A stretch of DNA of 64,000 nucleotides from Minisyncoccia bacterium. GTDB lineage: Bacteria > Patescibacteriota > Minisyncoccia > Phycocordibacterales > UBA9973. The stretch is taken from contig JBAQFO010000009.1 of assembly GCA_049287305.1 (NCBI GenBank), positions 26,259 to 90,258 of the forward strand, written 5' to 3'. A model generated the notes under the pieces. The model was not told the DNA's origin and searched no databases. It saw nothing but the letters and a program-made list of their open reading frames with translations. Positions 8,080 through 42,843 of the stretch are shown here, piece by piece. Numbering within the stretch: the first letter of the stretch is position 1; each line of letters begins with the position of its first letter. Made by a program: the position numbers and the translations under genes.

Positions 8080-8847
8080 TTATTCAATCCACTCTTTTAT
8101 TATACGTTCTGTATCTTTGGGATTTTTAACCGCCATGGTTTCAAAGCCGGCTTCAAAAACCGAATAGTCGTTGCCGCCCGGGAATAAGCCGTCACCCAGG
8201 AAAAGCACGTCGGATTTTTGCAACCCTGCCTTATTAAGAAACCGCACCAGTCCTACGGCCTTATTGAATCCTTTCGGTAAAATATCAATGCTGGAAGTTC
8301 CATTTATTAGAATGGTAACTTCGGGCAGTTGCGATTCAAGCAAAGCTTTGATTTTTTCTCTTTTCCTTCGGTCAGGATCAAATTTTATTTTTATCTCTAT
8401 CGGAGCTTGCTGCCCGTTCGGAGTAAAAGTTATCTGCGTATCTCTGTCTTCAATAATTTTACCGACGGGGTTCGGCGGAATTTCATATTCCGGAGAACAA
8501 ATGACCTCCTCTAATAATTTGATCGCCCTTGCTTTAGATTCAGATGGAAGCGGTTCTTTGTCTGTCAGAATCCACCCTTTGTTCGCTTCATCGTAGTCAT
8601 ATCTCTGACTGCCACTTGTGGGCAGTAGAGTGAAATTGCGTATGAAGGGCATCATGAATTCATCGTTCAGAAAAGGCGGAAGAAACTGGGTCTTCATTTG
8701 TTCAAAGGTTCCTCCTGCGATAGCTATTACCATTTTTTGCTGAACAAGTTTTTTAATCAAACCCGCCATTGCTTCCGTTATCGGGGTCTTGCTTGCCGTA
8801 AGAGTTCCATCAACATCAAACGCGATGATTTTTTTATCCGGTAGCAT
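8080..8847 (-). CDS. HAD-superfamily hydrolase (Cof / PMM-like)
   Basis: N-terminal FDVDGTLT HAD motif I; a C-terminal GDGLFPGGND motif IV-like sequence. Confidence 0.6.
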   Translation of the reverse strand: MLPDKKIIAFDVDGTLTASKTPITEAMAGLIKKLVQQKMVIAIAGGTFEQMKTQFLPPFLNDEFMMPFIRNFTLLPTSGSQRYDYDEANKGWILTDKEPLPSESKARAIKLLEEVICSPEYEIPPNPVGKIIEDRDTQITFTPNGQQAPIEIKIKFDPDRRKREKIKALLESQLPEVTILINGTSSIDILPKGFNKAVGLVRFLNKAGLQKSDVLFLGDGLFPGGNDYSVFEAGFETMAVKNPKDTERIIKEWIE

Positions 8848-9434
8848 TATTTTTTCTTTTTCTTATGTTTCTTAACAGCCTCCTTCACGAGCAAGGACGA
8901 ACTCTTAACCTTGCCGCCACGTCCGACATTGTAAACCATCTTGATATTGAGTTTTTTATGTATCATCCTTTCTTTGTATAAAGAAGAATCTGGATTGTTC
9001 GCATCTTTTTCGTCGCGATCTCCTCCGTTAGCAAAAATATGCGGTTTTATTTTAATCAAACCCTGACACACGCTCATGTCTTTGGTGTTATGTTTATGGT
9101 CGCTAATTATCACCCTATCCACGGCTTCAAAGGCTTCAATTATTTCCTTCCTTTCACGTTCCGGCATAAAAACATACCCCTTTTTAACCCTAATCCAGTG
9201 GTCGTTGTTAATATATACAACGAGTTCATCTCCCAGTCTTTTTGCTTCGCTAAAGAGGCGAACGTGGCCTATGTGCACAGGGTCAAATCCCCCACTCACC
9301 ATTACTACTTTCTTGGCCTTGCCCATAGGCTTACCCTCGAGCATAGCCCTACGGGCGAGCGGGATGAGGGTTTTTTTGTCTGGAGACTTTTTTCCCATAG
9401 TTACCATAATTATATACTCTTTTACAATAAACAA
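8847..9434 (-). CDS. Cytidylyltransferase-family nucleotidyltransferase (HIGH motif)
   Basis: VVMVSGGFDPVHIGHVRLF motif and a Lys-rich C-terminal tail. The true start may be an internal Met. Confidence 0.55.
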   Translation of the reverse strand: MFIVKEYIIMVTMGKKSPDKKTLIPLARRAMLEGKPMGKAKKVVMVSGGFDPVHIGHVRLFSEAKRLGDELVVYINNDHWIRVKKGYVFMPERERKEIIEAFEAVDRVIISDHKHNTKDMSVCQGLIKIKPHIFANGGDRDEKDANNPDSSLYKERMIHKKLNIKMVYNVGRGGKVKSSSLLVKEAVKKHKKKKK

Positions 9435-13243: not shown

Positions 13244-16200
13244 TTATTTATTTAGCACTGCTCGAGTCAGAGGTCCTACGATTCCATCCCCTTTCAAGCC
13301 GTTAGCTAATTGGAATTTAACAACAGCCGCTTTGGTTAAAGGTCCGAACTTACCATCAACTACAAGGGGTCCATAGCCCGCGGTGTTTAGGAACTTCTGA
13401 AGTTCCATAACTTCTGCTGGCGCCACTACACCCTGCTTCAACAGAAGAGTGAAGACAAATTGAGGACCAGTTTCCGCACCGAGAACTTCCCCTGGAGCTG
13501 GATTAGACGGAGTTCGTGACCTACTACCTCCCCCACTTGAGCTAGGGCTGTTTATGTTGGCGGTTGTGTTGGCTGTGGTATTAAGCAAGTTGTAATTTCC
13601 CGCGTCTGCTCCTGATATTGCTATACCAACAACAGAAACAGGTATTGATGTTCCCACCGCATCGTTTGCAAACGAAGCCGAAGTATAAGTAGCGGTGAAT
13701 ATATCTCCAGCCACACGATTGTCAAAGAGGTCTACAGTGGCAACGGTAGTGTTGTCATATGTCTTGTCTATTCCCGTGGCTGTAACCGTTAAGTCTCTCG
13801 GAATAACATTTACCGTGCGTGTTACTTCCGTGGCAGCATTGGTTGCCGCGTCTGAAACATTGTATCGGACCGTGTAAGCACCCAATACACTAGTATCAAC
13901 AGGATTTGTAACTACAATTGAGCCCGTGAGGTCTCCATCAACGATATCTAAGGCTGTAGCCCCGGCATCAACATATACGGAGCCATATTGGACATCTACA
14001 GGACTTACACCAAGCATTGTAATGTCCGGAGCAGTCGTATCTTCAACGATTACATCAAAAGTTTCTGAAGTTGCCACGTTCCCGGCTGTGTCAGCCTTGT
14101 CACAAGTAACGAGAGTAGTTCCCAGCGCAAAGGTTGAACCAGAGACTGGAGAACATGTTGCAGAAGCTGTAGCATCTATGTTGTCTGTCGCATCAGGAGA
14201 CGTGTAATTTACAACTGCACCTAAACCTGAAGTAGCTTCTTCTGTTTCGTCAGAATGAGAATCAATAACTGGAGCAGTTCTGTCAAAAGTTACCGAACTA
14301 GCATCAGTCACAGCCGTAACTGTAGTGCCGGCATTTCCTACAATATCAGAGAAATCTATGGTAAATGCCACTGTTCCTTCCGTATCTCCTCCTGTCATTA
14401 TGTAAGTAGCGCTCCAAGCTGTTGGTCCGCCAGAAACAACGGCAACATTGCCACCGATGGTAACCACAGGAGTCTGAATATCTTCTGAAGAACTAAAAGC
14501 TAAAGTCACTGTGTCGCCGACTTTTGCATAAGCCGTATTCGCATTGTTGGAAGAAATGTTAACTGAAGTTAACGTTGGGTCTGTAGTGTCTATGGTGAAT
14601 GCGGAAGCCGCTAGTAAATTGCTCAAGTTCCCTGCCGCATCGGTCACTCTAACGGTGCAATTATATGTGCCATCCAAGAGTGAATCAAATGTTACTGTAT
14701 TGGAGCCTGCTGAAGCCGAAGCAGTTCCGCTAGAACATCCTCCGCCGTAAGTTATATCTCCGGCTTCATCCGAGCTGAAAGTATAATCAGGGGTATCATC
14801 CGTATCTAGCGGCGGCACCGGAGTAACTTCAGCAATTACTGGAGACACACTATCATAAGTAATTCCAAATTGAGTCGCTGCTGTGCTGTTATTTCCAGCA
14901 GTATCAATAGCAGAATTTATATCAATATCAACAGTCATCAAACCTTGTATCACAGGCACAACACCGAAGTTATAAACTGTTGCGCTTGCTGGAACAAAAC
15001 TACTTAAAATTCCATTCACTAAATCTATGTCCGCACCAGAAAATCCTGTTACGTCTTCAGAAAATGTTGCGGTGAAAGGCACTGGAGACGTATTGGTTGG
15101 GTCTGTTTCTGTAGAAGATATTGTGACATCTGGTGGAACTGTATCAATTGTAAAATCTGATACATCGAGAATATTACTTACATTTGTACTTACATCCGTA
15201 ACTGTAATTGTGCAGTTAGTATGCGGTCCATCTGAAAGTGAGTCAAAAGTAATTGTGTTAGGTCCTACAACAGCAGCTGATGCGGGTAATACGCAATCTC
15301 CGCCTACAGTAATAGCACCTGCTTCTCCTGAACTAAAAGTGTAATCAGGAGTTGAGTCGTTGTCGGGTGTTGGAACAGGAGTAACTTCTGAAATAACCGG
15401 AGCTACGCCATCGCTTGGAATAACTGGTCCAGCTACTGGAGCGGGATTCCCCGCTAAGTCTGTAACTGAGCCGGTGTAGTTTATAGCCGGAGTTTCGGAA
15501 GTTGCAAAAGGAACAGTTACCGTAAGCCTTACAACGCCCGGTGCAAATTCAAAAGCATCCGGTGCAGTAAGCGTGTAGCCTGTAACATTAAAGTCAGCGT
15601 TAGTGACCGTTGCGCCATTTAAATCTTCGCTAAAAGTAACATCAATAGTTGTGGTAGAGGTGGTTTCAGCAGAATCAAGAGTAGGTGCTTCCGCGTCTAT
15701 CGCTAAAGTGTTGGCAATCACATCGGTGTAAGCTACGTTTGAGTTTAAATTATTATCTTCAAGCACAACACTTACGGGAACGTTGCCCGCAGTCCTGTTC
15801 GTATCTCCCGCGACAACGGTGTAGGTAACGGAATAAGAATTGTTAGCATTATCAGTGAATCCGGCTACTGCTTCTCCGTTAATTGTTATAGCGTCTTCCA
15901 CGTATCCAATCTGGTCTGCTGTAATATTGAGAGTAATTACATCCCCGATCTTTGCTGTTCCATTATCGGGAGAAAAAGATACTAAAGAAATATCAGGCGG
16001 GGTTATGTCTACAACTGTTGAAGCATAAATAAATGCAGTCCCAGCTGAACTTGCTGAACAAGTAATTTTTATATCATCTTCAGAACAAGCGACATCTGCG
16101 TTGGCGTCTACTAATGGCGCAAGAGCCTCAACAACCGACTGCACAGTGTTACCGCCGGTTGCAAGATAATTGTAAGGAGTTCCGTTGATTGTAACTCTAA

Positions 16201-17911: not shown

Positions 17912-18292
17912 ATGAAAACTTCAAAAATTATTGTCGAGCTAGTATTGTTACTAATTCTCTTGGTAGCTGTTAACGCAAGCGCATCTGAAGTCACAGGTAG
18001 CTTGTCTTCCGGAGTAGCTGCCACCGGAGGAAGTATCGGAGGGTCTGTAGGAGGAAGCACCATCGGTGGCACAGTAGGAAGCAGTAGCGGAAGCAGCAGT
18101 AGTGGTGGAGGTGGTTCGGTTTTGGGAGCATCTACCGGAGGCAGTGGAGGCGAAGTTTTGGGCGCGTCAACTTCCCCGTTCTTTCCCGCAACAGGACTTG
18201 GTTCTAATTACGATTCAGCCATCGCGGGATTAATCCTATTCGTCGCAACTTTGGCTATGTATGGATTTTATCGCGCCACGAAAAACGCCTAG
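17912..18292 (+). CDS. Gly/Ser-rich secreted protein with a C-terminal cell-wall-sorting-like signal (probable sortase substrate)
   Basis: A signal peptide, a GGS-rich low-complexity body, then FPATG followed by a hydrophobic helix and a basic tail (YRATKNA). Immediately upstream of the sortase gene. Confidence 0.55.
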   Translation: MKTSKIIVELVLLLILLVAVNASASEVTGSLSSGVAATGGSIGGSVGGSTIGGTVGSSSGSSSSGGGGSVLGASTGGSGGEVLGASTSPFFPATGLGSNYDSAIAGLILFVATLAMYGFYRATKNA

Positions 18293-19652: not shown

Positions 19653-19806
19653 ATAAACAATAATAAGATTATATCATTTCCAACATGTATTAAGAAGTTA
19701 TTTGTAATAAAAAATATAGATATTAAAGTTGGGAAAAGAAAAGTCACCCGGCACAGAAGTGTCAGGTGACTCTTCTCTGCTACGGGTGACGGATGACTAC
19801 CAAAAC

Positions 19807-20475
19807 TCACATGATGAAGTGGATTCCCCCGACGATTCGGGGTTCCCGCTTTTCCATGTGCAGAAGCGGGAGAGAGAATTTCACGGCTGGCATTACGGTG
19901 ACCTTACCCTTCTTCGTGGGCAGGCCGACCTCGTAACGAAGGGAGAACCCCTGTTCCCCCTTGAAGATGCCGGTGTCATACATCAGCCAGCCCCCGTGGA
20001 AGAACTTTCCGCTCGTCAGCTTGCCATTTGTGGCGAAACCGACACGGAGAAGTGTTCCCGCGTCACCGGTGCTGTTGGTGGGCAGAATGGGACTGAGCAT
20101 GAAAAACAGCTCAGCGTCCTTCCCGACGGCGACGAAGCCGCGCATGTCCACCTGCACCAAGTTGGCGGTGCTCCCGCCGGCGTGCCTGATGTAGAACACC
20201 TTCAGGGCGGTGTTTTTCCCCTTCCATCCAGCGGCGATGTCCGCCTCTCGTCCTTTGTTCTCGCCGGCCGAGCCCCAAACGCCGAGGCTGAGCCCATGAG
20301 CGAAGGCCTGGTCGACGGACAGGTAGAGGATGGGCTCTTCGCTCGCCCGGTCGCCGTTGTCCACGACGAAGCTGGACCAACCACCGAAGGTGATGCTGGT
20401 CTGAGCGGTAGCGGGGGTGAAGGACGCCAGCACGAGAGCGAGGGTGAGGGCAACCAAAACCATTCTGTGTTTCAT
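19807..20475 (-). CDS. Secreted beta-strand-rich protein (possible beta-barrel/porin-like), encoded in a ~60% GC island
   Basis: Signal peptide MKHRMVLVALTLALVLASFTPATAQ, then an alternating hydrophobic pattern. Local GC is far above the surroundings. An RBS and the TTGCGACAC motif lie upstream, and a terminator hairpin lies downstream at ~19745-19790. Confidence 0.5.
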   Translation of the reverse strand: MKHRMVLVALTLALVLASFTPATAQTSITFGGWSSFVVDNGDRASEEPILYLSVDQAFAHGLSLGVWGSAGENKGREADIAAGWKGKNTALKVFYIRHAGGSTANLVQVDMRGFVAVGKDAELFFMLSPILPTNSTGDAGTLLRVGFATNGKLTSGKFFHGGWLMYDTGIFKGEQGFSLRYEVGLPTKKGKVTVMPAVKFSLPLLHMEKREPRIVGGIHFIM

Positions 20476-20515
20476 GATTTCTCCTTACGCTGTTTGTGTT
20501 TGTTGTTGGTGTATT

Positions 20516-20566
20516 TTTTGCGACACGATAACTAAGAACACTTTTCCAAGCTATGGTGTCGCAAAA
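20516..20566. promoter_or_regulatory. Perfect 11-bp inverted repeat TTTTGCGACAC-N29-GTGTCGCAAAA upstream of the GC-rich gene
   Basis: Seen directly in the sequence. The same TTGCGACAC half-site recurs upstream of the second GC-rich secreted gene at 24763-24771. Confidence 0.35.
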
Positions 20567-20699
20567 AATAAATTATTTAAAAGATCGTATATTATTTCTA
20601 ATATACGTATATCACATTTATAGAGAAAAGTCAAGAGGACTCTGAACATTATCTTCCCCTTTGGAGCTACCGACCGAGGGGGACGAAGTGTGAAAAATT

Positions 20700-21062
20700 C
20701 TATTGCTTGAGAGACAGTTGTACTTGAAAGTCTTTAAAAGTGGAGTCTTCTATAATATCAGTTGTGACCATAGGTTGAAGTTGTTCTTTTAATTGTGCCA
20801 ACAAGGCTCTAGTGGCTTCATGTCCGCCTAAGTATGTGACAATGTCTTTTGAAATCATGAAACCAGCACCTCCCGTCCTAGCAAGATTACCGGCGCACAT
20901 GACTGCGTTTGAAGCTGTTAAAAGTTCTTCAGGAATTTGAGCGTCGATCCAATTTTGGATTACTTGTTGTTGCAAAAGAACTTCTTTCCGAAGTCGATTA
21001 AGCTTTCTTACATCTTCTATCCCTACTGAAGGAGGAGTCTCAAAAGTATTTTCCTTGGGCAT
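20700..21062 (-). CDS. Hypothetical protein
   Basis: 120-aa ORF with no recognisable motif. Confidence 0.35.
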   Translation of the reverse strand: MPKENTFETPPSVGIEDVRKLNRLRKEVLLQQQVIQNWIDAQIPEELLTASNAVMCAGNLARTGGAGFMISKDIVTYLGGHEATRALLAQLKEQLQPMVTTDIIEDSTFKDFQVQLSLKQ

Positions 21063-21125
21063 ATACTTAAGTATACTGGATCAATTTTGTTTGTCTATCG
21101 TTTAATAATGCTACCTCCGGAGTCT

Positions 21126-21596
21126 TTAAGTGGTTGCTTCGGAAAGAATGTCGTTTACCATAAGAGAAAATTCAAGCGCATCCTCTACACATGCAGAAGG
21201 AGCCTTAGACTCTATAAACTCTCCGGCCATTACGTAATTACCTACCAAATTGGTTGCGAACATTGTGTATCTGGCAACCGAAGTCATCCCCCAGTTCCAT
21301 CGACCGGAAGGATAAACTCCTTCCATCACAGCCTCGGCGCCAAGCTGGGAATACTTTTTTCGAACCGCGACAAGATTCTTACCTTTTCTGGCGTCGTATG
21401 TGGACGCAAGAATTTCATCGCTTTCTGTATCGTATACCAAAATTCCTGCGATTTCCTTATCTTCTAACTTAAATTTTTCAAAGAGCTTTTGAAGCTCTTG
21501 AACTTTTCTATCAGTGACCTCGAAGCTGACTACTGTTTGCATATTCTTAATATTCGTTAATAAATTGATAATGGCGACTTTCAATAAGTTTTTCAA
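21126..21596 (-). CDS. Hypothetical protein
   Basis: 156-aa ORF; the start may be the internal Met (MQTVV). Confidence 0.35.
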   Translation of the reverse strand: MKNLLKVAIINLLTNIKNMQTVVSFEVTDRKVQELQKLFEKFKLEDKEIAGILVYDTESDEILASTYDARKGKNLVAVRKKYSQLGAEAVMEGVYPSGRWNWGMTSVARYTMFATNLVGNYVMAGEFIESKAPSACVEDALEFSLMVNDILSEATT

Positions 21597-21655
21597 AAAG
21601 TAAAGAAAGTGTCAATCAAACTGTTCGGAAACTACTCTGCGATAGAAAAGTTTAT

Positions 21656-21949
21656 TTATACACCTAATTGAGTAATGAAATTGCTTACAAATCCCTGGGG
21701 GAATGTTTTCAATCGTTCATGAAAAGAAGAGAGTGACGGCACTTCAGAAAAAGAGTTTTCGCAATATTTTAAAGCCTCCCGAAAAGAAAATCCTCCAAGC
21801 CTTTGGATAGAAGCCACAGTAAGGATGAAGCTATCTGAATATGTTTTTGGTCTTCCCCCTTCGAGATTATTTTCTGGCAACGCATGCGAACGAATGAATT
21901 CTTTGGCCAACTTATGCAATTTTTTCGGCTTGATTACTATTTTTCTCAT
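21656..21949 (-). pseudogene. IS4/IS5-family transposase N-terminal fragment (IS remnant)
   Basis: GRPKTYSDSFILTVASIQRLGGFSFREA resembles the conserved N-terminal region of IS5/IS1182-type DDE transposases. Only 97 aa are present and the DDE domain is absent. Confidence 0.4.
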
Positions 21950-21972
21950 GTGCTGTATTTATTGGACAAAGT

Positions 21973-22380
21973 TCAATTAGCTTTGACAGCCTTAGCTTCA
22001 ACCATTGTTTTAAACCCGCCATAGGCGAACCGCTTCATATCGAATGGCATGGGCTGATTTTCATATTTCTTCTTGTTTTCAGGGCTGTCCATTTCTTTCA
22101 TAACTTTTTTATTAACTTCATCGCGGTGCTTGCGAGACTTGTATACAATCCAAGAGAAAACGACGGTTTCATCCTTTTTCAACCTAGAGAGTTTCACGAA
22201 TCCCTGTCCCATTCCCTTCTTTACTTTCAAATCATCTCCCACGCATTCAAAATATTCCAATGCGCCGTATTTTTTCCAAGTATTCGCTCCCCACTCTGCC
22301 ATCTTCTTGTAAGCGGCAATATCCTTCTTTTTAATAGGGATAACAAATCCGTCAACATATTTTTTACTGTTTGTTTTCAT
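21973..22380 (-). CDS. DUF1428-family protein (YbaA-like)
   Basis: N-terminal KYVDGFVIPIKKKDIAAYKKMA ... GALEYFECVGDD matches the DUF1428 pattern. Confidence 0.6.
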   Translation of the reverse strand: MKTNSKKYVDGFVIPIKKKDIAAYKKMAEWGANTWKKYGALEYFECVGDDLKVKKGMGQGFVKLSRLKKDETVVFSWIVYKSRKHRDEVNKKVMKEMDSPENKKKYENQPMPFDMKRFAYGGFKTMVEAKAVKAN

Positions 22381-22480
22381 ATATTTATATAGACGATTTA
22401 TCTTTTAATATATTACTAATATTAACAGATAATTTAACATTTAACATGGATTCCGAATTTGCCTCGCTTGCAGGCTATGA

Positions 22481-23866
22481 TTGGCATGGAGTAAGTTAGA
22501 ATGGCCATTGTGTTACAATAAAAAAATGTGGTTAAACACAAAAACACCTTGCGCATCGTCGTTTACTTTCGGTTTATATAAAGTTGATACTCTTCGTTCA
22601 ATCATCACCTTTACCTACCATGTGGAATTTCAAAGCGGGAGAGTGAAGACTTTTACTGACCGACTCTTCTTCCCAGACGTGGCGCCAGAGATGTGGGAGA
22701 AGGTTCCTAAGACGGTGCTAGAGCCAACGCTTCAAGCTCTTCTAATAATGCTCGGTATTAACTACTGGTGCGTCTTTCCCACAAAGAACATTCGCATTGA
22801 AGGGTTTACTCTCACCCGTGCGCAGGCACACTTTTGGGACTCACTCTACTTGAATGGACTTGGAGAATTTTTCTACGACATGCAAATGGATTTCAATAAT
22901 CTCATCACGTTTCCGTTTGACGATTCTCTCCCCGTGCCTACCCCCGCGCGTTTAGTTCGCGCAATTGACCAGCCTGGACGGGCGCTTCTACTAAATGGTG
23001 CGGGGAAAGATTCTATCCTTTCTGCGGAAATGTTAAAGGCCTCGGAAAGGCCGTTTGATTTTTTCGCTTTTGCCCCAACGCCTGCCCACAAGCGCATCGC
23101 CAAGCTTGTGGGCGCGAAAACAATAAGAGTCAGCCGTCGCCGCGACCCACGCGTTGAAAGAATTATGGTATGGTCTAGGATATCAAATGCTTACCCATCG
23201 GTCTCAACCTTCACCTTCATCGCCACATTACTTGCGGAACTTCTCGGCTACAATTCAATCGTTTTCTCCAACGAAAAGAGTGCTGATTTCGGCAATCTCA
23301 CTTACCTCGGCCTGCCAGTGAACCATCAATGGTGTAAATCTTCCACTGCAGAAAAGATGGTCAATGACTACATCCAGTCCTTTATAACCCCCGACATAGC
23401 AACCTCCTCACTATTGCGAGAATTCAGCGAACTTGAGATTGTGCGGCGCTTTGTGCACTATCCAAAATACCTCCGCCATGTCACGAGCTGTAATATGTAT
23501 TTTTGGCTCCCTCCCCTAATGCAGCATCTGTCGCGGACGTCGTACTGGTGCGAGCGATGCCCGAAATGCGTGTTCCTCTTCGCATCCTTCGCGGCATTTT
23601 TGCCGAAAAAAGAAGTGGTGGACATGTTCGGCTCCGACCTTTATGCTAAAAAGCGCCTTCTACCACTTGTGAGACGCATCCTTGGCATTGAAGGCTTTAA
23701 ACCGCTAGATTGTGTCGGCGAACCCGAAGAAATGATTCTTGCCATGCATTATTCGGCACAACGCGGAGAATATGCCAGCGAGCCGGCGATGGAACTTTTT
23801 CTAGAACATTTTCCGTCAAACCACGGTTTTGATGAAATCGCGCGAAGAGTCTTCACTCAAAAGTAA
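22481..23866 (+). CDS. Hypothetical protein, possibly PP-loop ATP-pyrophosphatase-like, GC-rich (~50%)
   Basis: NGAGKDS resembles the SGGxDS PP-loop. A C-terminal CERCPKC cysteine cluster. Elevated GC relative to the flanks. Confidence 0.4.
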   Translation: MAWSKLEWPLCYNKKMWLNTKTPCASSFTFGLYKVDTLRSIITFTYHVEFQSGRVKTFTDRLFFPDVAPEMWEKVPKTVLEPTLQALLIMLGINYWCVFPTKNIRIEGFTLTRAQAHFWDSLYLNGLGEFFYDMQMDFNNLITFPFDDSLPVPTPARLVRAIDQPGRALLLNGAGKDSILSAEMLKASERPFDFFAFAPTPAHKRIAKLVGAKTIRVSRRRDPRVERIMVWSRISNAYPSVSTFTFIATLLAELLGYNSIVFSNEKSADFGNLTYLGLPVNHQWCKSSTAEKMVNDYIQSFITPDIATSSLLREFSELEIVRRFVHYPKYLRHVTSCNMYFWLPPLMQHLSRTSYWCERCPKCVFLFASFAAFLPKKEVVDMFGSDLYAKKRLLPLVRRILGIEGFKPLDCVGEPEEMILAMHYSAQRGEYASEPAMELFLEHFPSNHGFDEIARRVFTQK

Positions 23867-23895
23867 AACACCCTTTTAGGGTGCTGAACTTTTTG
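23861..23895. repeat. 35-bp terminator-like element, copy 1 (direct repeat of 24970-25004)
   Basis: aagtaaaacacccttttagggtgctgaactttttg, containing the hairpin caccc-ttt-agggtg. An identical copy lies next to the tRNA-Asn 3' end. Confidence 0.7.
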
Positions 23896-24163
23896 AGGGT
23901 AAAGGTAAATTATGCATAAATTCTAGAAAATCTTCAACGTTATATCCCGTGAGCCTTCTAAACTCCTCAGCACCTTCTTTAGCTTTTTTTGCAGCACCTT
24001 CGGGATCATTACCTGGCGTAATACTATAGTGAGAATATTGACCCAACGCTTTGTCTATAGCCTCTCCCATTGCTTTTCGATCTGGCCACCACTGACCGGC
24101 CGCAAAGCCCACCCATTTTCGAAAAGTTCCTTCTTTACTCTCAGTTTTCCTTTCTCCCTCCAT
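23876..24163 (-). CDS. Hypothetical protein
   Basis: 95-aa ORF inside the 1.1 kb segment bounded by the 35-bp direct repeats. Confidence 0.3.
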   Translation of the reverse strand: MEGERKTESKEGTFRKWVGFAAGQWWPDRKAMGEAIDKALGQYSHYSITPGNDPEGAAKKAKEGAEEFRRLTGYNVEDFLEFMHNLPLPSKSSAP

Positions 24164-24372
24164 GTGTAAAGTTTAATATTTTTTGGATAAGTATGCAAAC
24201 CAACCAACCTTGCTCCAAACTTGGAATGAAGTTCGAAAGACAATATTAGAAGAAAAACTTATTTAAAAGAAAAGCCACCCGCAGAGTTGCCACGGGGGCT
24301 TCTCTTTGGGCGGCAGATGTGTCGCGTTTTTGTTTTAGGTCTCGCGGTTAGACCGCAGCTCTCGCTCCCGTC

Positions 24373-24732
24373 CTAGTCGCCCCCGTACCAGTTGTGACCG
24401 CTGCCGTTCGGTTGTAAACCGAACTTGGAATCCACTGCTCTGTCTATGTCTTCTGCAGTGTAAGAGTCCGGAACGTAGAAGACGGGCTGACCTTCTACCG
24501 TCAGAACCTTCACCTTGAAAAGCGAAGGGGTCGGCTTTGCCGTTGTTGTAGCTACCGGACCTTTTGTCAGAGACTGCTGCTTCTCGACGGGGTTGGTTTT
24601 TGCACCCAGCAGGTTTGCGCTCATCAGGTGATTGATAATGCATTTTCCGGAATACAAATGCGAGAAAAGGTCGCCGACGATGATGACGAGTGCAATAACC
24701 ATCACTGCTCGTAAAGGACTTATGCGTTTCAT
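24373..24732 (-). CDS. Small secreted protein, GC-rich (~55-60%)
   Basis: N-terminal hydrophobic signal/anchor, an RBS aggagaa, and the TTGCGACAC motif 31-39 nt upstream of the ATG. Confidence 0.45.
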   Translation of the reverse strand: MKRISPLRAVMVIALVIIVGDLFSHLYSGKCIINHLMSANLLGAKTNPVEKQQSLTKGPVATTTAKPTPSLFKVKVLTVEGQPVFYVPDSYTAEDIDRAVDSKFGLQPNGSGHNWYGGD

Positions 24733-24969
24733 GACGTTCTCCTAGTGTTGCGGGTCTGGTTCGTGTCGCAACGCACGTTGGTTGATTTGTCGGTTGGGCA
24801 AAGAGGTGGTAAGCAATAAAAACTGCTTTCTGACTTGGACGCCTAAATGTTCAAAAAACGCTTAGGTATCCAAGCCAAAATTTTTTCAAAGAGCGGTATT
24901 AATTCGGCTTAAAATTACCATGCTTTTATAGATTTGTAAATAGCGATGGCGGAGCTCTCTCGGCTAAAA

Positions 24970-25004
24970 AAGTAAAACACCCTTTTAGGGTGCTGAACTT
25001 TTTG
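24970..25004. repeat. 35-bp terminator-like element, copy 2 (terminator of tRNA-Asn on the minus strand)
   Basis: Identical to 23861-23895. On the minus strand the hairpin is followed by a T-run, directly downstream of the tRNA 3' end. Confidence 0.7.
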
Positions 25005-25054
25005 TAAAAAACATTGCTCCGGGGGTAGGGATCGAACCTACGACCAATCGCTTA

Positions 25055-25608
25055 CATGTTGTCTCCTATTACTAGAAGCATGGACTATATCATATCCATA
25101 TTCTGAAAATTCAGAACTTAGGACCAAGGCGCTTCGTCCGACCTTGCGTCGGACTACTCCACTAAGTGGATAGTCTCTACACCTTTTCTGACTTTGCGTC
25201 AGAACTTGGCTCGGGATTACCCCGCAAAAGGGTTTCCCCGAATTCACCTCGTTTTTCAATCTACTTTTCAATAGAAAGCTGCGTAATGCCTGCCTCGACT
25301 TCTCGATGGCAATTTGCACAAAGTAGAACACACTTATCAAGTTCAAGTCGTGTTTTTTCCCACGATCTTGTGTAGCCTTTATCTCCAATGCCGAAACTTT
25401 TTTCTGACCTATTGATATGGTGAAGCTCTAAAGCTCCAGCGCATTTCTTATAGCCACAAATTTGGCAGTGTCCACCTTTGTATTCGATAGACATGGATTT
25501 AACTTTTTTTCTTCTTTTGGCTACGGCTTTGATAAGCGCCTCTCTTCTGTCGACATACTTTCTGGTGTCTGGCATATATAACCATTATACCAAAAAAGTC
25601 TTTGTCTC
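25055..25608 (-). mobile_element. Group I intron (IC3-like, Azoarcus/cyanobacterial tRNA-intron type) carrying an HNH ORF
   Basis: The intron core contains AAGGTGTAGAGACTA (R/P7 element, near-identical to the Azoarcus tRNA-Ile intron) and GATATAGTCC (S/P7' element). The last intron nucleotide is G and the last exon-1 nucleotide is U. Confidence 0.65.
25261..25575 (-). CDS. HNH homing endonuclease encoded within the tRNA intron
   Basis: CQICGYKKC ... LELHHINRSEKSF ... CVLLCANCHRE: an HNH motif with Zn-binding cysteines. The ORF starts 30 nt inside the intron. Confidence 0.7.
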   Translation of the reverse strand: MPDTRKYVDRREALIKAVAKRRKKVKSMSIEYKGGHCQICGYKKCAGALELHHINRSEKSFGIGDKGYTRSWEKTRLELDKCVLLCANCHREVEAGITQLSIEK

Positions 25609-25710
25609 ACAGGCGACCGCTCTACCGCTGAGCTACCCCGGAGCGATGTTTTTTACTCTTTAAATTTTATAAAGAACTTTTGATATCTTAGCAGAAAAGA
25701 TAGAAAAAAC

Positions 25711-30402: not shown

Positions 30403-30624
30403 CACTCATCCTTCTTGACATGTTTGATAAATAGACCAAATAATGTAATAATTTTGCTATAACTTAATAAAAGTAGCCTAAACCTTTAGAAATAGAGGCA
30501 TGGTGAATAGACCCGTGAAGGTTAAAGAACTCCTAGTCAGAGTTCGCCTTCACGGGCTGTATGTGGAAACACATATATCTGATTAGGAGCTTTTTGCGTT
30601 TTAACCCTATTAACAAAAAATTAT

Positions 30625-38535: not shown

Positions 38536-38901
38536 TTGTCCGCCCCGAATTCCCCCAAAACAAAAAGAGGAGCAAATGGAAAATTCCTCCCCAAACCCCT
38601 CCTTTTCCATTTGCGACATCCGAATTCAAAAAAGATTAGCCGAGTGTTTTGCCAAATCCTTTCCCCAAAAAATAGTTTTGCCAAAACTTCGTCCGCATTG
38701 TTCCGCCACCTGCCTGAATACTTGGAAGGCAGAACCCCGAAAGAAAAACACCCTTTCCTTTTCCAAAAGAAATTTCACCCCCGCCAAATCAAGAAAGCAA
38801 GGAGTGTTTTTCTTTCGGGGTTGCCGAGGCTCTGCGAGGCAGTGGCGGGACGATTCATTCTCGCTCAAAAAAAGTTCGAGCAAATGATATAATGACACCA
38901 C
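38536..38901. repeat. IR1-R: 366-bp inverted repeat partner of 34507-34872
   Basis: See IR1-L. It abuts IR2-L, so the junction reads ...gacacca|ccaaacg. Confidence 0.85.
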
Positions 38902-39029
38902 CAAACGAAACTTGTTCGGAATTAAGAAAGCGGAGCGATTTTGCGGTAGCCAAAATCGCGCTATCATTTTTTTCAAAACCCTTTCCGCCTACGGCGGAAG
39001 CCGTGAATTCCCAAAGCTCCCCCCAATTG
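38898..39029. repeat. IR2-L: ~132-bp inverted repeat partner of 40441-40575
   Basis: The reverse complement of 40441-40575 matches with only a few mismatches. The outer end begins ccacca. Confidence 0.8.
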
Positions 39030-39034
39030 AAATC

Positions 39035-40639
39035 ATGAAAGACCTCAAACCAAAATATTTTCTCTACGCTCGTAAGAGTACAGAAGACGATGACCACCAA
39101 ATAATGTCTATTGAGGCACAGCTTTTTGAATTACATGAATACGCGCGTAGAGAAAATCTTGAAATTCTTGAGGAATTTCAAGAGTCGAAAAGCGCAAAGA
39201 AACCGGGTCGTGAACTATTTAACGAAATGATGGCCCGCATTGAGAAAATGGACGGCGTAGGTATCCTCGCGTGGCATCCTGACCGTCTTGCTCGCAATAG
39301 TGTTGACGGCGGGCGCATCATTTACGCAGTAGACACGACCAAAATAGTTTCTTTGCGTTTTCCGACATTTTGGTTTGAGCCAACTCCGCAAGGGAAATTT
39401 ATGTTGCAGGTGGCGTTCGGACAGAGTAAATATTATTCCGACAATCTTGTTGAGAATATTACTCGTGGTATCCGCCAAAAAGTCCGTCGAGGCGAGTGGT
39501 TGGTGCGCGCTCCCTTTGGCTATGTGAATAATCCGAAAACGAGAAATATTGAACCTCACCCGACTAAATCTCGCATTGTAGTAAAAGCGTTTGAAGAATA
39601 CGCCAAAGGGACGCACACCCTCGGCACTATCGCCGACTTTTTGGCGGATCACGGCGTGAGTACGAAGGGAACGCCACCTGCCAAAGCTTCCGTCGCTCGT
39701 ATGCTCTCCAATCGTGTCTATCTCGGTTTTACTTTTCACAAAGGCGAGTATTACGACGGAAGCTTTGCGCCAATTATTTCTCCGACACTGTTTGAAGCAG
39801 TCCAAAAAATGCTTGCGAAAAAATCTCGTCCTCGCGTGCAAAAAGTGCCAAACCATTTTCCCTTTGCACAATTTGCTCGGTGCGGAGAGTGCGGAAGTAT
39901 GATTACGGCTCAATATGCGACAAATCGTTTTGGCACAAAATATACTTACTATCGCTGTACCAAAAAGAAAGGTGTTTGTCGTCAGCCGTATCTATCTTCT
40001 TCCGCACTCATTTCGCAAGCAAAAAATCTGCTTCAATCAGTGTCGCTTCCTCTTTCAGAAATTGAGAACATGGAAAAACAAATTGACCTATGGGACAAAG
40101 AATCAATTTCAGAAAGAGGAAGTGCTGCCCAAAATCTTAAAACCAAACTTTCCGAAACGAAGGAGAAGCTGGACAAGCTCGTTTCCATTTATCTTGACGG
40201 CGATATTGAACGCGAGATTTACTTACAGCGAAAAGACCTTCTCCTTCGTCAGAAAGCAAAGTTTGAGGAAAGTTTTAAAGATTTTGGACAACAGAGAAAA
40301 AATTGGGTCGAACCCTTGCGGAGTTTCGTTTTGTCTTTGAGAGAAGCCGTTATTTTGGAAAAAAGCGAAAACTATTTCGCATGGAAAGAGTTTTTCCAAA
40401 AAATCGGCTCGAACCCTATTCTCAAAGACAAAACGCTTTCATGCAATTGGGGGGAGCTTTGGGAATTCACGGCTTCCGCCGTAGGCGGAAAGGGTTTTGA
40501 AAAAATTGACAGCGCGATTTTGGCTCCCGCAAAATCGCTCCGTTTTCTTAATTCCGACAATGTTTCGTTTGGTGGACCGTACAGGACTCGAACCTGCCAC
40601 CCCCTCATTGCAAATGAGGTGCTCTACCAGATGAGCTAA
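39035..40639 (+). CDS. Large serine recombinase (second copy, divergent from the first)
   Basis: YARKSTEDD catalytic-serine region, a WHPDRLARN motif, and a zinc ribbon CGECGS...YYRCTKKKGVC followed by coiled-coil-like sequence. The ORF reads through IR2-R and into the tRNA-Ala complement, so the real stop is uncertain. The ATG at 39035 is chosen as the start. Confidence 0.75.
   Translation: MKDLKPKYFLYARKSTEDDDHQIMSIEAQLFELHEYARRENLEILEEFQESKSAKKPGRELFNEMMARIEKMDGVGILAWHPDRLARNSVDGGRIIYAVDTTKIVSLRFPTFWFEPTPQGKFMLQVAFGQSKYYSDNLVENITRGIRQKVRRGEWLVRAPFGYVNNPKTRNIEPHPTKSRIVVKAFEEYAKGTHTLGTIADFLADHGVSTKGTPPAKASVARMLSNRVYLGFTFHKGEYYDGSFAPIISPTLFEAVQKMLAKKSRPRVQKVPNHFPFAQFARCGECGSMITAQYATNRFGTKYTYYRCTKKKGVCRQPYLSSSALISQAKNLLQSVSLPLSEIENMEKQIDLWDKESISERGSAAQNLKTKLSETKEKLDKLVSIYLDGDIEREIYLQRKDLLLRQKAKFEESFKDFGQQRKNWVEPLRSFVLSLREAVILEKSENYFAWKEFFQKIGSNPILKDKTLSCNWGELWEFTASAVGGKGFEKIDSAILAPAKSLRFLNSDNVSFGGPYRTRTCHPLIANEVLYQMS
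40441..40575. repeat. IR2-R: inverted repeat whose outer 6 bp are the CCACCA 3' terminus of tRNA-Ala
   Basis: Seen in sequence: ...gtttcgtttggtgg|accgtacagg, where the reverse complement of tggtgg is the discriminator A plus CCA of the tRNA. Confidence 0.8.
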
Positions 40640-40645
40640 CGGCCC
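40570..40645 (-). tRNA. tRNA-Ala(UGC), CCA encoded
   Basis: GGGCCGT-TA-GCTC-ATCTGGTA-GAGC-A-CCTCA-TTTGCAA-TGAGG-GGGTG-GCAGG-TTCGAGT-CCTGT-ACGGTCC-A-CCA. The G3:U70 Ala identity pair is present. Confidence 0.85.
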
Positions 40646-40653
40646 AATATTTG

Positions 40654-40890
40654 CTATACTAGCACCTTTTTTAAAAACTTTCTACCTGCTGCTGACTTTA
40701 AATACAATTCTCTTTCTCTAGCTGTCTTAAAGTCATTAATCTCTTCTTTGTAGACAAGTTCCAACTCTTTCGTTTTACTTGTCGTTTTCGTATGACCGCT
40801 TTTATGTTCTTGTAACCTTCTTTTTATATCATTCGTAAATCCTTTATAAACTTTATTATTTTTATCTTTTAACACATAAACTGTGTACAT
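40654..40890 (-). CDS. GIY-YIG nuclease-domain protein (YhbQ/UPF0213-like)
   Basis: MYTVYVLKDKNNKVYKGFTNDIKRRLQEH: GIY...YIG plus Arg and Glu, in a 78-aa protein. Confidence 0.65.
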   Translation of the reverse strand: MYTVYVLKDKNNKVYKGFTNDIKRRLQEHKSGHTKTTSKTKELELVYKEEINDFKTARERELYLKSAAGRKFLKKVLV

Positions 40891-40958: not shown

Positions 40959-41070
40959 CCATAACAAAGATATTCTATATTATTTCCCCAATAATGCAAA
41001 TACTGCCATAAAAAAATTCTTTGACAATGAAGGGGAAAAGGATTAGATTACCTAAAGGAGGTGTTGTCAA

Positions 41071-41397
41071 GTGAAAAACCTGAACAGGCTGCTCGGTGAG
41101 CTCGCCCATCAGGGCGTGATCAGCAACACCGTAGGGTTGTTCTTACGAGAGTTCTTTGAGGACATGCACCTCAAAGACGACATACGGGAGGAAGAGATCA
41201 CCTATCTCCTTAGAGATATGTCGGCGTGGGACTTTGATATATCGTCCTGCTCAACCGACTTCCTCTCTGGGAGATTCTACCAGCAGATTCCCTCTATGCT
41301 CGCCAAGGGGGCATTCAACAAGAACATCTCATCCGCAGATCTGGATAAGATGTCGTATATCTTCTGTCGCGTGCATGGGGCGATTGATACAAACTAA
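41071..41397 (+). CDS. Hypothetical protein, GC-rich (~50%), GTG start
   Basis: 108-aa ORF with a clear terminator (gggaggcccttttcactaaggcctccc) at 41400-41428. Its composition differs from the flanks. Confidence 0.4.
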   Translation: MKNLNRLLGELAHQGVISNTVGLFLREFFEDMHLKDDIREEEITYLLRDMSAWDFDISSCSTDFLSGRFYQQIPSMLAKGAFNKNISSADLDKMSYIFCRVHGAIDTN

Positions 41398-41450
41398 CGG
41401 GAGGCCCTTTTCACTAAGGCCTCCCAGTTTTGTTTTTTATTTAATTTTGT

Positions 41451-42015: not shown

Positions 42016-42360
42016 GTTTCGCCCTGTGTTTTATAAGCCGAATTCTGTGACCTTGACCGAAGCCAAGGTGATAGCGATTTGTCTAGGCCTGCGATTACTC
42101 GCAAGCTCAAGCGATTCTCCTCGGCCTAAGCCGAGGCACGATCTTGCACAGAGGTAAGGATTTAGCCGTTTCACCCTGATGTTTCCATCAGATTACCCCT
42201 AACGGGGCCCTAGCCTTTCGGCGTCGGCGTCTCTGCTCGCACCTATGTATTGCTACACACGGGGGTTACCCGCTACCATTCCCACCCTTTGCAGGGCTCG
42301 CTGTGTTCGGACTTTCCTCACTCCGACGTAAATCGGAGCGTAGCTATCAAAATACAGGAC
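42016..42360 (-). ncRNA. rnpB: RNase P RNA (bacterial type A, compact)
   Basis: On the minus strand: GGAAAGTCCG (P4 region), GGGTAACCCCCG (P10/11-like), ACAGAATTCGGCTTATAAAAC (P4 3' strand through the P1 region). The P1 helix pairs CCUGUAUUUU with AAAACACAGG. No ORF spans the region. A terminator hairpin lies at 41988-42010. Confidence 0.8.
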
Positions 42361-42384: not shown

Positions 42385-42843
42385 TTAATATGTAAATACC
42401 GCCACATTCCCCGGCTTTAAGTTATTCTTTTCGGAAAATCCCGCAACAACTTCTAGAACATATTTAGCATCAATTCCCGGGTCAAAAGATTCAGGATAAG
42501 ATCCGGGAGTAGCGTTATCTTTTACGTAAACCACTTTCAAATCTTCCCCTATCCAAATTATATCAATCGGGAAATTCATATCCTTCATCCAGAAAGGATA
42601 GCGTCCAGGATTTTCAAAAACAAAAAGCATACCTTCGTCTTCTCCCAGACCCTCCCGACCACTTAGTCCTTTTTGCAGCTTTTCGTTACTTAAAGCGACG
42701 TCTACAACAACGGCTTTCTCCGCAAGAGTTACCATTTTTATATTGGCTGGCCGATATGTTCTGGTTGTGTAATTAATTACAAAAAATCCTATTACAAAAA
42801 TAATGACTAAAAAAACAATAGCCCAAATGTTCTTTTTTATCAT
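42385..42843 (-). CDS. DUF192 (COG1430) family protein with an N-terminal TM anchor
   Basis: GMLFVFENPGRYPFWMKDMNFPIDIIWI...KVVYV pattern typical of DUF192. Confidence 0.6.
   Translation of the reverse strand: MIKKNIWAIVFLVIIFVIGFFVINYTTRTYRPANIKMVTLAEKAVVVDVALSNEKLQKGLSGREGLGEDEGMLFVFENPGRYPFWMKDMNFPIDIIWIGEDLKVVYVKDNATPGSYPESFDPGIDAKYVLEVVAGFSEKNNLKPGNVAVFTY

Follow-up and report, generated by a model that had tools for sequence, protein, structure and literature searches.

A putative transcription unit with a GC-rich gene for a predicted porin-like β-barrel among native genes of a Minisyncoccia genome

Introduction

Proteins of the Gcw_chp family (PF09694 / TIGR02001) are predicted proteobacterial outer-membrane barrels of unknown function, and KdgM and NanC (4pr7, 4fqe, 2wjr) are 12-strand specific porins that the BAM machinery assembles in the enterobacterial outer membrane. 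Members of the Candidate Phyla Radiation (CPR) that have been described lack an outer membrane and are attached to the cells of a host. Here we analyze a gene for a predicted, exported 12-strand β-barrel of 222 amino acids (aa), together with the small transcription unit in which it appears to lie, in a 64-kb stretch of the genome of a Minisyncoccia bacterium (contig JBAQFO010000009.1 of assembly GCA_049287305.1). This whole stretch is called the window below, and all window-wide counts apply to these 64 kb. Minisyncoccota is the CPR/Patescibacteria phylum placed in Bacillati, and the cell wall is of the monoderm type in the few CPR organisms for which it has been described (PMC8871954). The NCBI annotation assigns both the 222-aa protein and a 119-aa protein encoded a few kilobases away to a metagenome-assembled genome (MAG) named “Minisyncoccia bacterium”.

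Three other kinds of described system are relevant for the comparison. The morons of lambdoid phages are self-contained promoter–gene–terminator insertions with deviant composition; small integrase-less islands at tRNA 3′ flanks are cis-mobilisable elements; and leader hairpins are known from the stem-loops in the 5′ untranslated region of Escherichia coli ompA and from the RNase III sites of phage early mRNAs. A previous, sequence-only reading of the window had regarded four GC-rich patches as pieces of one foreign patchwork, recently acquired from a high-GC donor such as the host and still controlled by an operator of that donor. Our results instead favor several independent small accessory units lying among native CPR genes, of which the barrel unit was acquired whole from a higher-GC CPR lineage, and we assign this reading a probability of about 0.6.

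Results

Composition, setting and age of the barrel gene

The GC content of the window is 41.6% (200-nt windows: mean 0.416, standard deviation 0.061) and not about 37% as first estimated. Sliding GC, tetranucleotide and codon-usage analyses confirmed the first patch as strongly deviant. Positions 19751–20500 have 59% GC, with 200-nt windows peaking at 66%, and the barrel open reading frame (ORF; 19807..20475, minus strand) has a GC content of 60.4%. Its GC at the three codon positions is 0.58/0.44/0.79 (GC3 78.9%), the last value being approximately 4.7 standard deviations above the mean of the window ORFs (0.404, standard deviation 0.081), and of all tetranucleotide profiles in the window, its 700-nt profile deviates most (z 5.7). 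When the protein was recoded with the codon usage of 19 large native ORFs, the expected GC was only 47.8% and the expected GC3 44.9%, so that the GC excess of the gene sits in synonymous sites; the amino-acid content alone explains about 6 GC points. Codons ending in C dominate (TTC 14 to 1, GAC 8 to 0, ATC 8 to 1, ACC 11 to 0), and the G-ending codons AAG, CAG and CTG are likewise enriched, in the manner of a GC-rich genome. Thus, the gene is compositionally foreign in its surroundings, as had been claimed (GC3 0.789 versus 0.449 expected). Deviant composition and codon usage of the kind expected after horizontal acquisition were found in two further ORFs discussed below, orf119 (0.59 versus 0.44) and orf108 (0.69 versus 0.43), and a patchy distribution was found for the barrel gene, which has few relatives, and for orf119, which has none.

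The barrel gene is surrounded by genes for YceG, a sortase (1 kb away), a 1307-aa surface protein with a peptidoglycan-binding domain, DUF1428 and MurL. Both of its junctions recur at 100% identity in the NCBI contig L002 and the Logan contig L003 (a third contig matching the window at 100% identity, L026 from NCBI, is described below), and the junctions are also present, with the same neighbors, at 86% identity in the independent Hainich groundwater contig L001. Since independent contigs reproduce the junctions, a chimeric join of contaminant contigs, which had been raised as a possibility, is excluded for the barrel gene.

In L001, the orthologue is placed directly between DUF1428 and YceG. 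By blastn, positions 1–208 of L001 correspond to window positions 22202–21995 and positions 250–1255 to window positions 20648–19632, with an identity of 85.1% across DUF1428 and 86.2% across the barrel unit and the start of YceG. The native DUF1428 gene (21973..22380, minus strand; PF07237, E 8e-32) is the immediate upstream neighbor of the barrel unit in L001. In the window, the two are separated by an indel of 1,346 bp (20649..21994) that holds ORFs of 120, 156 and 97 aa and for which the window repeat search found no flanking repeats. The 97-aa ORF (21656–21949, minus strand) had been taken for an insertion sequence (IS) transposase fragment, which we could support only weakly: its residues 15–77 cover positions 21–88 of a 289-position IS5 transposase model (E 3.9e-4), and no Pfam match, DDE domain or terminal repeats were found for it. 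It is at most an N-terminal transposase remnant.

The barrel protein and its L001 orthologue are 89% identical, with dN 0.068, dS 0.575 and dN/dS 0.12. The low ratio indicates a functional protein that was present before the lineages of the window and L001 split. With the same locus in a second lineage, gene and flanks at 85–86% identity and a dS of 0.58, the acquisition was not very recent, contrary to the earlier proposal. The DUF1428 fragment beside the gene gave dN 0.062 and dS 1.09 in a comparison of only 69 codons. At synonymous third positions, 24 changes from GC to AT and 17 in the reverse direction were counted from the window towards the lower-GC genome, a lean that fits slow amelioration.

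Promoter, leader and terminator of the barrel unit

A putative sigma-70-type promoter of the barrel gene is located at 20606..20634 on the minus strand and consists of TTGACT (20634–20629), a 17-nt spacer and TG-n-TATACG (20611–20606). It was missed by a consensus promoter scan owing to the G at the end of its −10 element. Its position and sequence are kept in L001 and in L015, the protein of which is 47% identical to that of the window, and both loci can be aligned with the window over the entire block between the −35 element and the ORF. Downstream of the promoter, the presumed transcript would contain, in this order, a small hairpin, a long hairpin (20570–20512), a CA-rich tract and the Shine-Dalgarno sequence AAGGAGA (20480..20486, minus strand), read from the sequence 4 nt before the ATG. 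At the other end, an intrinsic terminator could be read at 19731..19770 (minus strand) as the stem GTCACCTG...CGGGTGAC followed by TTTTCTTTT. It is kept in L001, and its 17-nt tail is 94% identical to the tail of the terminator of the 119-aa gene (repeat family D1).

Ribosome-binding sites of the AGGAG type are indeed present at both secreted genes. AAGGAG was found in 9 of 15 leaders of barrel-family or GC-rich units and in 6 of the 57 other window genes, and a general search for k-mers enriched in the leaders returned the strong Shine-Dalgarno sequence only; judged by these motifs, the accessory units appear to bear unusually strong translation signals.

The long leader hairpin (20512..20570, minus strand) consists of an outer 13-bp stem TTGCGACAC/GTGTCGCAA, bulged inner stems and a 5-nt loop. 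The 11-bp perfect palindrome reported previously is therefore real and longer than stated, comprising 13 perfect base pairs (TTTTTTGCGACAC, 20514–20526 with 20556–20568) within 27-nt arms that are 85% complementary. The 140-nt leader (20476–20615) has a folding energy of −37.2 kcal/mol (z −6.4). In a three-sequence alignment of the window, L001 and L015, the 23 pairs of the hairpin are 97% paired, and a shifted register lowers the pairing to 45–59%. Three pairs show double changes (U-A to C-G, C-G to U-A, and A-U to G-C), two positions retain G·U pairs, and there is one U-A to U-G change. Since on the opposite strand these G·U pairs would turn into A·C mismatches, the hairpin is read in the mRNA sense. 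The stem sequence itself varies, reading GCGACGC in L001 and GTGACGC in L015, and because pairing is retained through compensatory changes and G·U pairs while the sequence varies, the palindrome is best regarded as an RNA structure and not as an operator.

A palindromic repressor operator was tried as an explanation and rejected: the half-sites vary in L001 and L015 while their pairing is kept, and they lie approximately 35–95 nt downstream of the putative −10 element. The retained donor operator of the sequence-only reading thus falls in a transcribed leader downstream of an AT-rich promoter.

Similar long bulged hairpins were found in the leaders of L015, L016, L011 and L019 (z −5.7 to −8.1), the leader of L013 being weaker (z −1.9). 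Their sequences vary among subfamilies, and the comparison of L016 with L011 (GUCUCC/GGAGAC versus GCUUCC/GGAGGC) suggests one more compensatory pair. No Rfam family matched the hairpin at gathering or E-value thresholds (a plant miRNA match at E 0.13 is meaningless). As in the ompA and RNase III systems, a bulged stem of about 23 pairs follows the promoter of a surface-protein gene and precedes its ribosome-binding site, and pairing is retained while the sequence drifts. Unlike those hairpins, it would start an estimated 15–30 nt from the presumed 5′ end, and it shares no sequence or Rfam match with them. Because such elements have the form of a stem exceeding 20 bp that separates the promoter from the ribosome-binding site, we infer by analogy that the hairpin may control mRNA stability or processing, either as an RNase III-type site or as a protective structure.

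The arm GTGTCGCAA occurs exactly three times in the window, at 20518–20526 (minus), 20556–20564 (plus) and 24763–24771 (plus), compared with an expected count of 0.34, and three copies were reached in 1 of 100 shuffles. Two of these copies are the arms of one palindrome and are therefore not independent, and we estimate the chance of any 9-mer being common to two 120-nt leaders at approximately 0.05. The sequence-only reading correctly placed the 9-mer upstream of both secreted genes, and its interpretation as a shared site did not hold: the third copy (24763..24771, plus strand; TTGCGACAC in the sense of the gene) forms the 5′ arm of a 6-bp stem and part of the loop in the leader of the 119-aa gene. 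As the stem sequence varies even among true orthologues, the third copy is probably there by chance, and the 9-mer was rejected as a regulatory site on account of this variation and of its different structural role in the second leader. The additional GTGTCGC at 24319 exists, and is a weak observation with 8 occurrences in the window versus 3.2 expected. Another candidate, the motif AAATMMACYRAC, was found only in the two leaders from which it had been derived, so that the test was circular. ATCAACCAACnTGC and AGGAGAACGTCATGA are common to the leaders of the 119-aa gene and of a 170-aa GC-rich gene in L013, and the two proteins are unrelated.

Predicted structure and family links of the barrel protein

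The N-terminus of the barrel protein is typical of a Sec signal (MKHRMVLVALTLALVLASFTPATA), with MKHR, a hydrophobic core, and ATA followed by Q. AlphaFold2 run on the single sequence gave a pLDDT (predicted local distance difference test) of 38, and the prediction was hence repeated with a 20-member family alignment, which gave a pLDDT of 90.7, a predicted template modelling (TM) score of 0.80 and 12 long strands closing into an antiparallel barrel after the signal peptide. The confident model thus predicts a signal-peptide-bearing, outer-membrane-type 12-strand β-barrel. The previous description of a secreted, β-rich, barrel-like protein was borne out in this prediction, and so was the remark that such cargo is unusual for a cell presumed to have no outer membrane, as a CPR cell is. 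In a Foldseek search of the PDB, the leading matches were KdgM (4pr7; E 2.8e-5, TM 0.60/0.76), FapF, the oligogalacturonate porin, NanC and OmpG. The matches listed at a TM of about 0.5 or more were porins and outer-membrane barrels, and the full list added BamA, autotransporter and protease barrels; in a viral structure library, phage-encoded outer-membrane proteins were matched. Reading the sequence against the strand map, we found that strand residues alternate between hydrophobic and polar and that the lumen is charged. The window protein resembles KdgM and NanC in size and in the polar pattern of the lumen. It differs from them in having only 12–16% sequence identity and no sequence-family match to them, and in belonging to an organism without a known outer membrane.

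The nearest sequence family appears to be Gcw_chp. This model was matched at E ≤ 1 by 10 of the 20 family members (best E 4.4e-8), the relative P0141 passes its gathering score with 29.2 bits, and a phmmer chain leads from the barrel to Gcw_chp through P0132 (1.4e-10) and P0141 (1.6e-4). These sequence matches suggest that the barrel family is a divergent, distantly linked branch of the Gcw_chp outer-membrane barrel superfamily. Both have approximately 220–250 aa, a signal peptide, an all-β barrel and an E-x-D-Y-x-x-G-W block. Unlike Gcw_chp, the window branch is found mostly on contigs of CPR, organisms described as single-membrane (PMC8871954), its genes bear the conserved leader hairpin, and the window subfamily has no aromatic residue at the C-terminus. 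In the relatives P0134, P0140 and P0143 (403–487 aa), the barrel is fused to an N-terminal extension of about 170–270 aa with hydrophobic, apparently membrane-spanning segments, for which no Pfam family was matched.

Distribution and composition of the barrel family

The family count is based on an exhaustive phmmer search against 1.84 billion representatives, which returned 25 relatives, 7 of them at E ≤ 1e-10. A word-indexed homology search returned only the barrel itself and the L001 orthologue. A pattern scan of the GTDB species representatives gave nine barrel-family loci; they came from four “uncultured Candidatus Saccharibacteria” MAGs, Parcubacteria GW2011_GWD2_38_11, a Candidatus Paceibacterota MAG and one further bin, the remaining two being weak, distant matches in Lysobacter and a proteobacterium. 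When the alignment of the close subfamily was used, no locus was found in the GTDB genomes and one partial locus in the JGI metagenomes. CPR-like neighbors were present at L004/L013, L008, L009/L010, L011, L015 and L016, and several loci derive from 0.1-µm groundwater fractions. Every relative with examined genomic context was on a contig that was CPR-labeled or had CPR-like neighbors, and the family is present on at least 10 such contigs. No neighbor is conserved across the loci, and each copy is thus a stand-alone gene. In the literature searched, we found no earlier description of Gcw_chp, porins or β-barrels in CPR.

The GC content of the barrel gene equals or exceeds that of its flanks in 12 of 13 loci. 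The gene and flank values are 60 versus 42% in the window, 58 versus 35% in L001, 53 versus 36% in L013, 56.5 versus 44% in L015, 56 versus 46% in L020 and 63.5 versus 54% in L016, and the gap is 4–8 points in the remaining loci. In a neighbor-joining tree of 27 sequences, the copies from the low-GC genomes (window, L001, L015 and L013) form one clade with mutual identities of about 45%. The sister clade consists of L011 and L016, which are on contigs of 54–55% GC with CPR-like neighbors and have a barrel GC3 of 0.80. The L013 contig (36% GC, CPR-like) carries three GC3-rich single-gene units of 102, 222 and 170 aa, including the stretches 8389–9080 and 14499–15131.

The 461-aa protein is a native member of the MurL family

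The second patch had been described as a foreign gene for a PP-loop-like protein. The 461-aa ORF (22481..23866, plus strand) was instead found to belong to the MurL family (UDP-MurNAc-L-Ala-L-Glu epimerase; NCBIfam NF041275), with E 2e-66 and 224 bits to a model the Xanthomonadales equivalog cut-off of which is 700. It has 803 homologues; the best 120 of the 803 are 72–80% identical and all carry PF26298/PF26299, and the organism recorded for 6 of these 120 is Kaiserbacteria, Paceibacterota, Pacebacteria, Parcubacteria or unclassified. For the L002 and L026 copies of this gene, the product is likewise recorded with PF26298/PF26299. The composition of the ORF is mostly unremarkable (47.5% GC, GC3 0.515, z 1.4), only 22901–23150 reaching 55.6% GC, and the native ORFs 42840–44261 (GC3 0.53) and 61181–62413 (0.51) have similar values. 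Because it is 72–80% identical to CPR proteins among the 120 best matches listed, the 461-aa protein is a native MurL family member and not foreign; its role as an enzyme is predicted from the family. With MurL native and the remaining units unrelated, the picture of a single patchwork of foreign genes falls apart. The MurL neighborhood of the related 54% GC CPR contig L028 showed no synteny, no barrel gene and no empty insert site. In another NCBI assembly (GCA_049303715.1), contigs 5 and 6 end and begin at window 23119–23122, inside MurL, with a 4-nt overlap; the window assembly is unbroken across these positions, and the MurL frame is intact.

The 119-aa gene lies in a repeat-bounded insert

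The third patch corresponds to orf119 (24373..24732, minus strand), an orphan of 119 aa with an N-terminal hydrophobic anchor or signal. Its deviation is genuine and weaker than that of the first patch (50.8% GC, GC3 0.59 versus 0.44 expected, z 2.3). Only the self match was found among 5.8 billion clusters, and the protein matched no family in Pfam, NCBIfam or PHROG. The gene shares a 1,072-bp segment with a 95-aa ORF of native-like composition (23876..24163, minus strand; GC3 0.30). This segment, located between tRNA-Asn and the stop codon of MurL, is bounded by two copies of the perfect 37-nt direct repeat AAAAGTAAAACACCCTTTTAGGGTGCTGAACTTTTTG. The left copy (23859..23895, plus strand) overlaps the MurL stop codon and holds a terminator hairpin, and the right copy (24968..25004, plus strand) is 11 nt from the 3′ end of tRNA-Asn. 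The repeat has only these two copies in the window, with a chance expectation of 0, and the segment therefore carries the scar expected of an insertion. The Logan contig L027 equals window 23866–24997, ends within both repeat copies and has a 23-nt terminal overlap, which could reflect a circular form. L026 holds the tRNA, the 119-aa and 95-aa ORFs and MurL in the order of the window.

The 1.07-kb insert is thus a recent insertion or small mobilisable unit, independent of the barrel. Like integrase-less tRNA islands, it lies between direct repeats of which one abuts a tRNA gene. Unlike them, its repeat is a terminator hairpin and not part of the tRNA, and it contains no recombinase gene. The 102-aa GC3-rich unit of L013 is comparable, being flanked by hairpin-containing 31-nt direct repeats TAAGTAGCAAGGRCTGTCCTTGCTATCCCCA.

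The 119-aa gene has a putative promoter at 24912..24940 (minus strand; TTTACA at 24940–24935, a 17-nt spacer, and TG-n-TAATTT at 24917–24912), followed by a long structured leader (fold z −3.5), and an intrinsic terminator lies at 24270..24296 (minus strand). A group I intron of 554 nt (Rfam RF00028 at 25062–25321), which holds the ORF of a 104-aa HNH endonuclease (25261–25575), splits the tRNA-Asn(GUU) gene (25016–25642, minus strand) at its anticodon loop; the standard tRNA scan missed this gene.

The fourth patch and other features of the window

The fourth patch was confirmed at the codon level. Its unit (41021..41440, plus strand) consists of the apparent promoter TTGACA-17-TAGATT, AAGGAGG, a 108-aa ORF and a terminator. 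The ORF, orf108 (41071–41397), has 49.8% GC and a GC3 of 0.69 versus 0.43 expected, and no family or viral relative was found in the libraries searched, PHROG and IMG/VR among them. It adjoins a GIY-YIG ORF (40654–40890), tRNA-Ala and a serine recombinase gene. The latter, a 575-aa large serine recombinase ORF (38912–40639), is bracketed by 132-nt inverted repeats (38898–39029 and 40444–40575; 95% complementary), and the whole module (38898–40645), which abuts tRNA-Ala (40570–40645), looks invertible or mobile.

Two further GC-rich stretches have other explanations. A class A RNase P RNA (42018–42359, minus strand; 105 bits, just over the gathering score) explains 42051–42350 (55% GC), and 17951–18250 is explained by the gene for a Gly/Ser-rich secreted protein of 126 aa with a C-terminal hydrophobic anchor (17912–18292, plus strand), which lies directly upstream of the sortase gene and is likely a sortase substrate. 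A LOOT RNA (Rfam RF03000, 69.5 bits) is located at 30475–30587 (plus strand).

Discussion

The region is best described as a set of separate accessory units and not as one foreign island. The barrel unit (19731–20634, minus strand) would be a portable transcription unit, composed of an AT-rich promoter, a hairpin leader, a Shine-Dalgarno sequence, a GC3-rich ORF and a terminator, with the ORF specifying a Sec-exported, 12-strand porin-like barrel of a rare family found mostly on CPR contigs. Most likely, the unit was gained whole from a higher-GC CPR lineage before the window and Hainich lineages diverged. Purifying selection would then have kept the barrel while its codons drifted slowly towards the AT-richer composition of the host genome. 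The palindrome would be the outer stem of the leader hairpin, acting at the RNA level rather than binding a repressor, and the barrel protein may form a small channel on the surface of the cell or where it meets a host cell. The 119-aa gene and the 95-aa ORF would have come separately, as a 1.07-kb insert that duplicated the 37-nt terminator-containing sequence. We favor the view that the complete unit was transferred from higher-GC CPR lineages, perhaps repeatedly, because of the codons of the GC-rich type, the sister clade on contigs of 54–55% GC, and the lean towards amelioration.

Several observations weigh against this interpretation. Despite identities of only about 45%, the clade from low-GC genomes has stayed GC3-rich (0.65–0.79), and because all of its members are so, either several transfers from unsampled donors or codon selection would be needed. 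No donor with a close copy of the barrel (more than 50% identity) was present among the relatives found, and the presumed source lineage was deduced from the neighbor-joining tree of 27 sequences. The borders of the barrel unit showed neither direct repeats nor a mobility gene in the window repeat search. The barrel structure, and with it the export of the protein, its pore formation and its location, are predictions. No Pfam family was matched by the window protein even at E ≤ 1 (the Gcw_chp gathering score is 24 bits), and hhalign of the window subfamily (A2) with the Lysobacter and proteobacterial Gcw_chp pair, each of which scores 92 bits to the Pfam model, gave only 62% probability (E 7.6e-5, 116 columns). 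The window subfamily also lacks the C-terminal aromatic residue typical of outer-membrane barrels and hence a recognizable β-signal: the window protein ends in ...GGIHFIM, and the termini in the subfamily are M, K, L, R or L, with F, W or Y at the C-terminus of L019, L020, L021, L022 and several other relatives. Lastly, the covariation proposed for the hairpin comes from three sequences, and 21 of 500 shuffles reached the observed count.

The strongest competitor is that the genes are old residents of low-GC CPR genomes, in which selection for high-expression codons or against AU-rich RNase sites has kept them GC-rich. The persistence of high GC3 (0.65–0.79) in four copies of one clade at about 45% identity fits this idea, as do the strong bias to C-ending codons, a gene GC content not below that of the flanks in 12 of 13 loci, a barrel dS (0.58) below that of the adjacent DUF1428 fragment (1.09, a comparison limited to 69 codons), and the consensus promoters, strong Shine-Dalgarno sequences, leader hairpins and strong terminators, which suggest high expression. 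However, the enrichment also extends to G-ending codons, the pattern of a GC-rich genome; GC3 is lower in the copy from the lower-GC genome, as amelioration predicts; and the unrelated orf108, orf119 and the 102-aa and 170-aa genes of L013 are shifted alike, two of them inside repeat-flanked inserts. We therefore consider codon selection rather unlikely as the main cause. A recent transfer from a high-GC donor such as the host, with the donor's operator or promoter TTGCGACAC retained in common by the two secreted genes, would account for the strong anomaly in GC, GC3 and tetranucleotides and for the exact 9-mer upstream of both genes (three copies versus 0.34 expected); outer-membrane barrels are also natural in double-membrane bacteria, and the Gcw_chp proteins of Proteobacteria are distantly related to the barrel. 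However, the nearest relatives are all on CPR-labeled or CPR-like contigs, and CPR copies have an AT-rich promoter and leader in common. As an operator, the palindrome would have its half-sites 42 bp apart and downstream of the promoter, its sequence changes with the pairing kept, its G·U pairs would be mismatched on the other strand, and the 9-mer is half stem and half loop in the 119-aa leader. With the barrel gene older than a split at dS 0.58 and MurL native, a recent gift from the host is unlikely.

Phage-type morons or prophage remnants delivered by a CPR phage would fit the architecture of the units and their contrast in composition, and the likeness extends to the own promoter and terminator and to the surface or outer-membrane type of cargo. 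Matches to phage-encoded barrels in the viral structure library and mobile debris nearby (the IS5-like remnant, the GIY-YIG and HNH genes and the serine recombinase) point in the same direction. Unlike phage morons, the barrel unit is not inside a prophage; it is surrounded by housekeeping genes, and none of the ORFs examined near the units was noted as a phage structural gene. Because IMG/VR scans with the barrel family, orf108, orf119 and the shared leader pattern returned no relatives, and because barrel, orf119 and orf108 have no PHROG family, a delivery by phage is ranked low and seems very unlikely. An artefact of assembly or binning, in which GC-rich contaminant fragments of a double-membrane organism were mis-joined into a CPR contig, would explain the abrupt GC steps and the contig boundary inside MurL in the other NCBI assembly, and L027 with its terminal overlap would fit a separate circular molecule of 1.1 kb. 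It is extremely improbable, as the barrel junctions recur in L002 and L003 and, with the same neighbors, in the independent L001, MurL is continuous in frame and homologous over its full length, L026 repeats the gene order around the 119-aa gene, and other CPR contigs bear family members among neighbors of the CPR type. Taken together, whole-unit acquisition of the barrel from a higher-GC CPR lineage, among native genes and other independent units, is the reading we prefer.

A more far-reaching idea is that CPR maintain exported porin-type barrels of their own that act outside the membrane of the producer and travel as promoter–hairpin–gene–terminator cassettes with the hairpin as a shared control element. 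We offer it as a speculation that is doubtful at present. The site of the barrel could then be the outer membrane of a Gram-negative host, as a nutrient conduit at attachment, or an unrecognized outer lipid layer of the CPR cell.

Horizontal gain of small GC-rich genes is ordinary, but this cargo, a selectively maintained porin-like barrel with a confident model, found in CPR, is not. Besides the barrel family, the portable expression cassette with its covarying hairpin and the persistence of GC-rich codons in AT-rich genomes are unusual, and both matter for understanding how genes are expressed and exchanged in a phylum that has hardly any genetics. A barrel working at the host interface would offer a concrete candidate for the way in which ultra-small episymbionts draw on their hosts; one located in the CPR envelope would call the single-membrane picture of these organisms into question.

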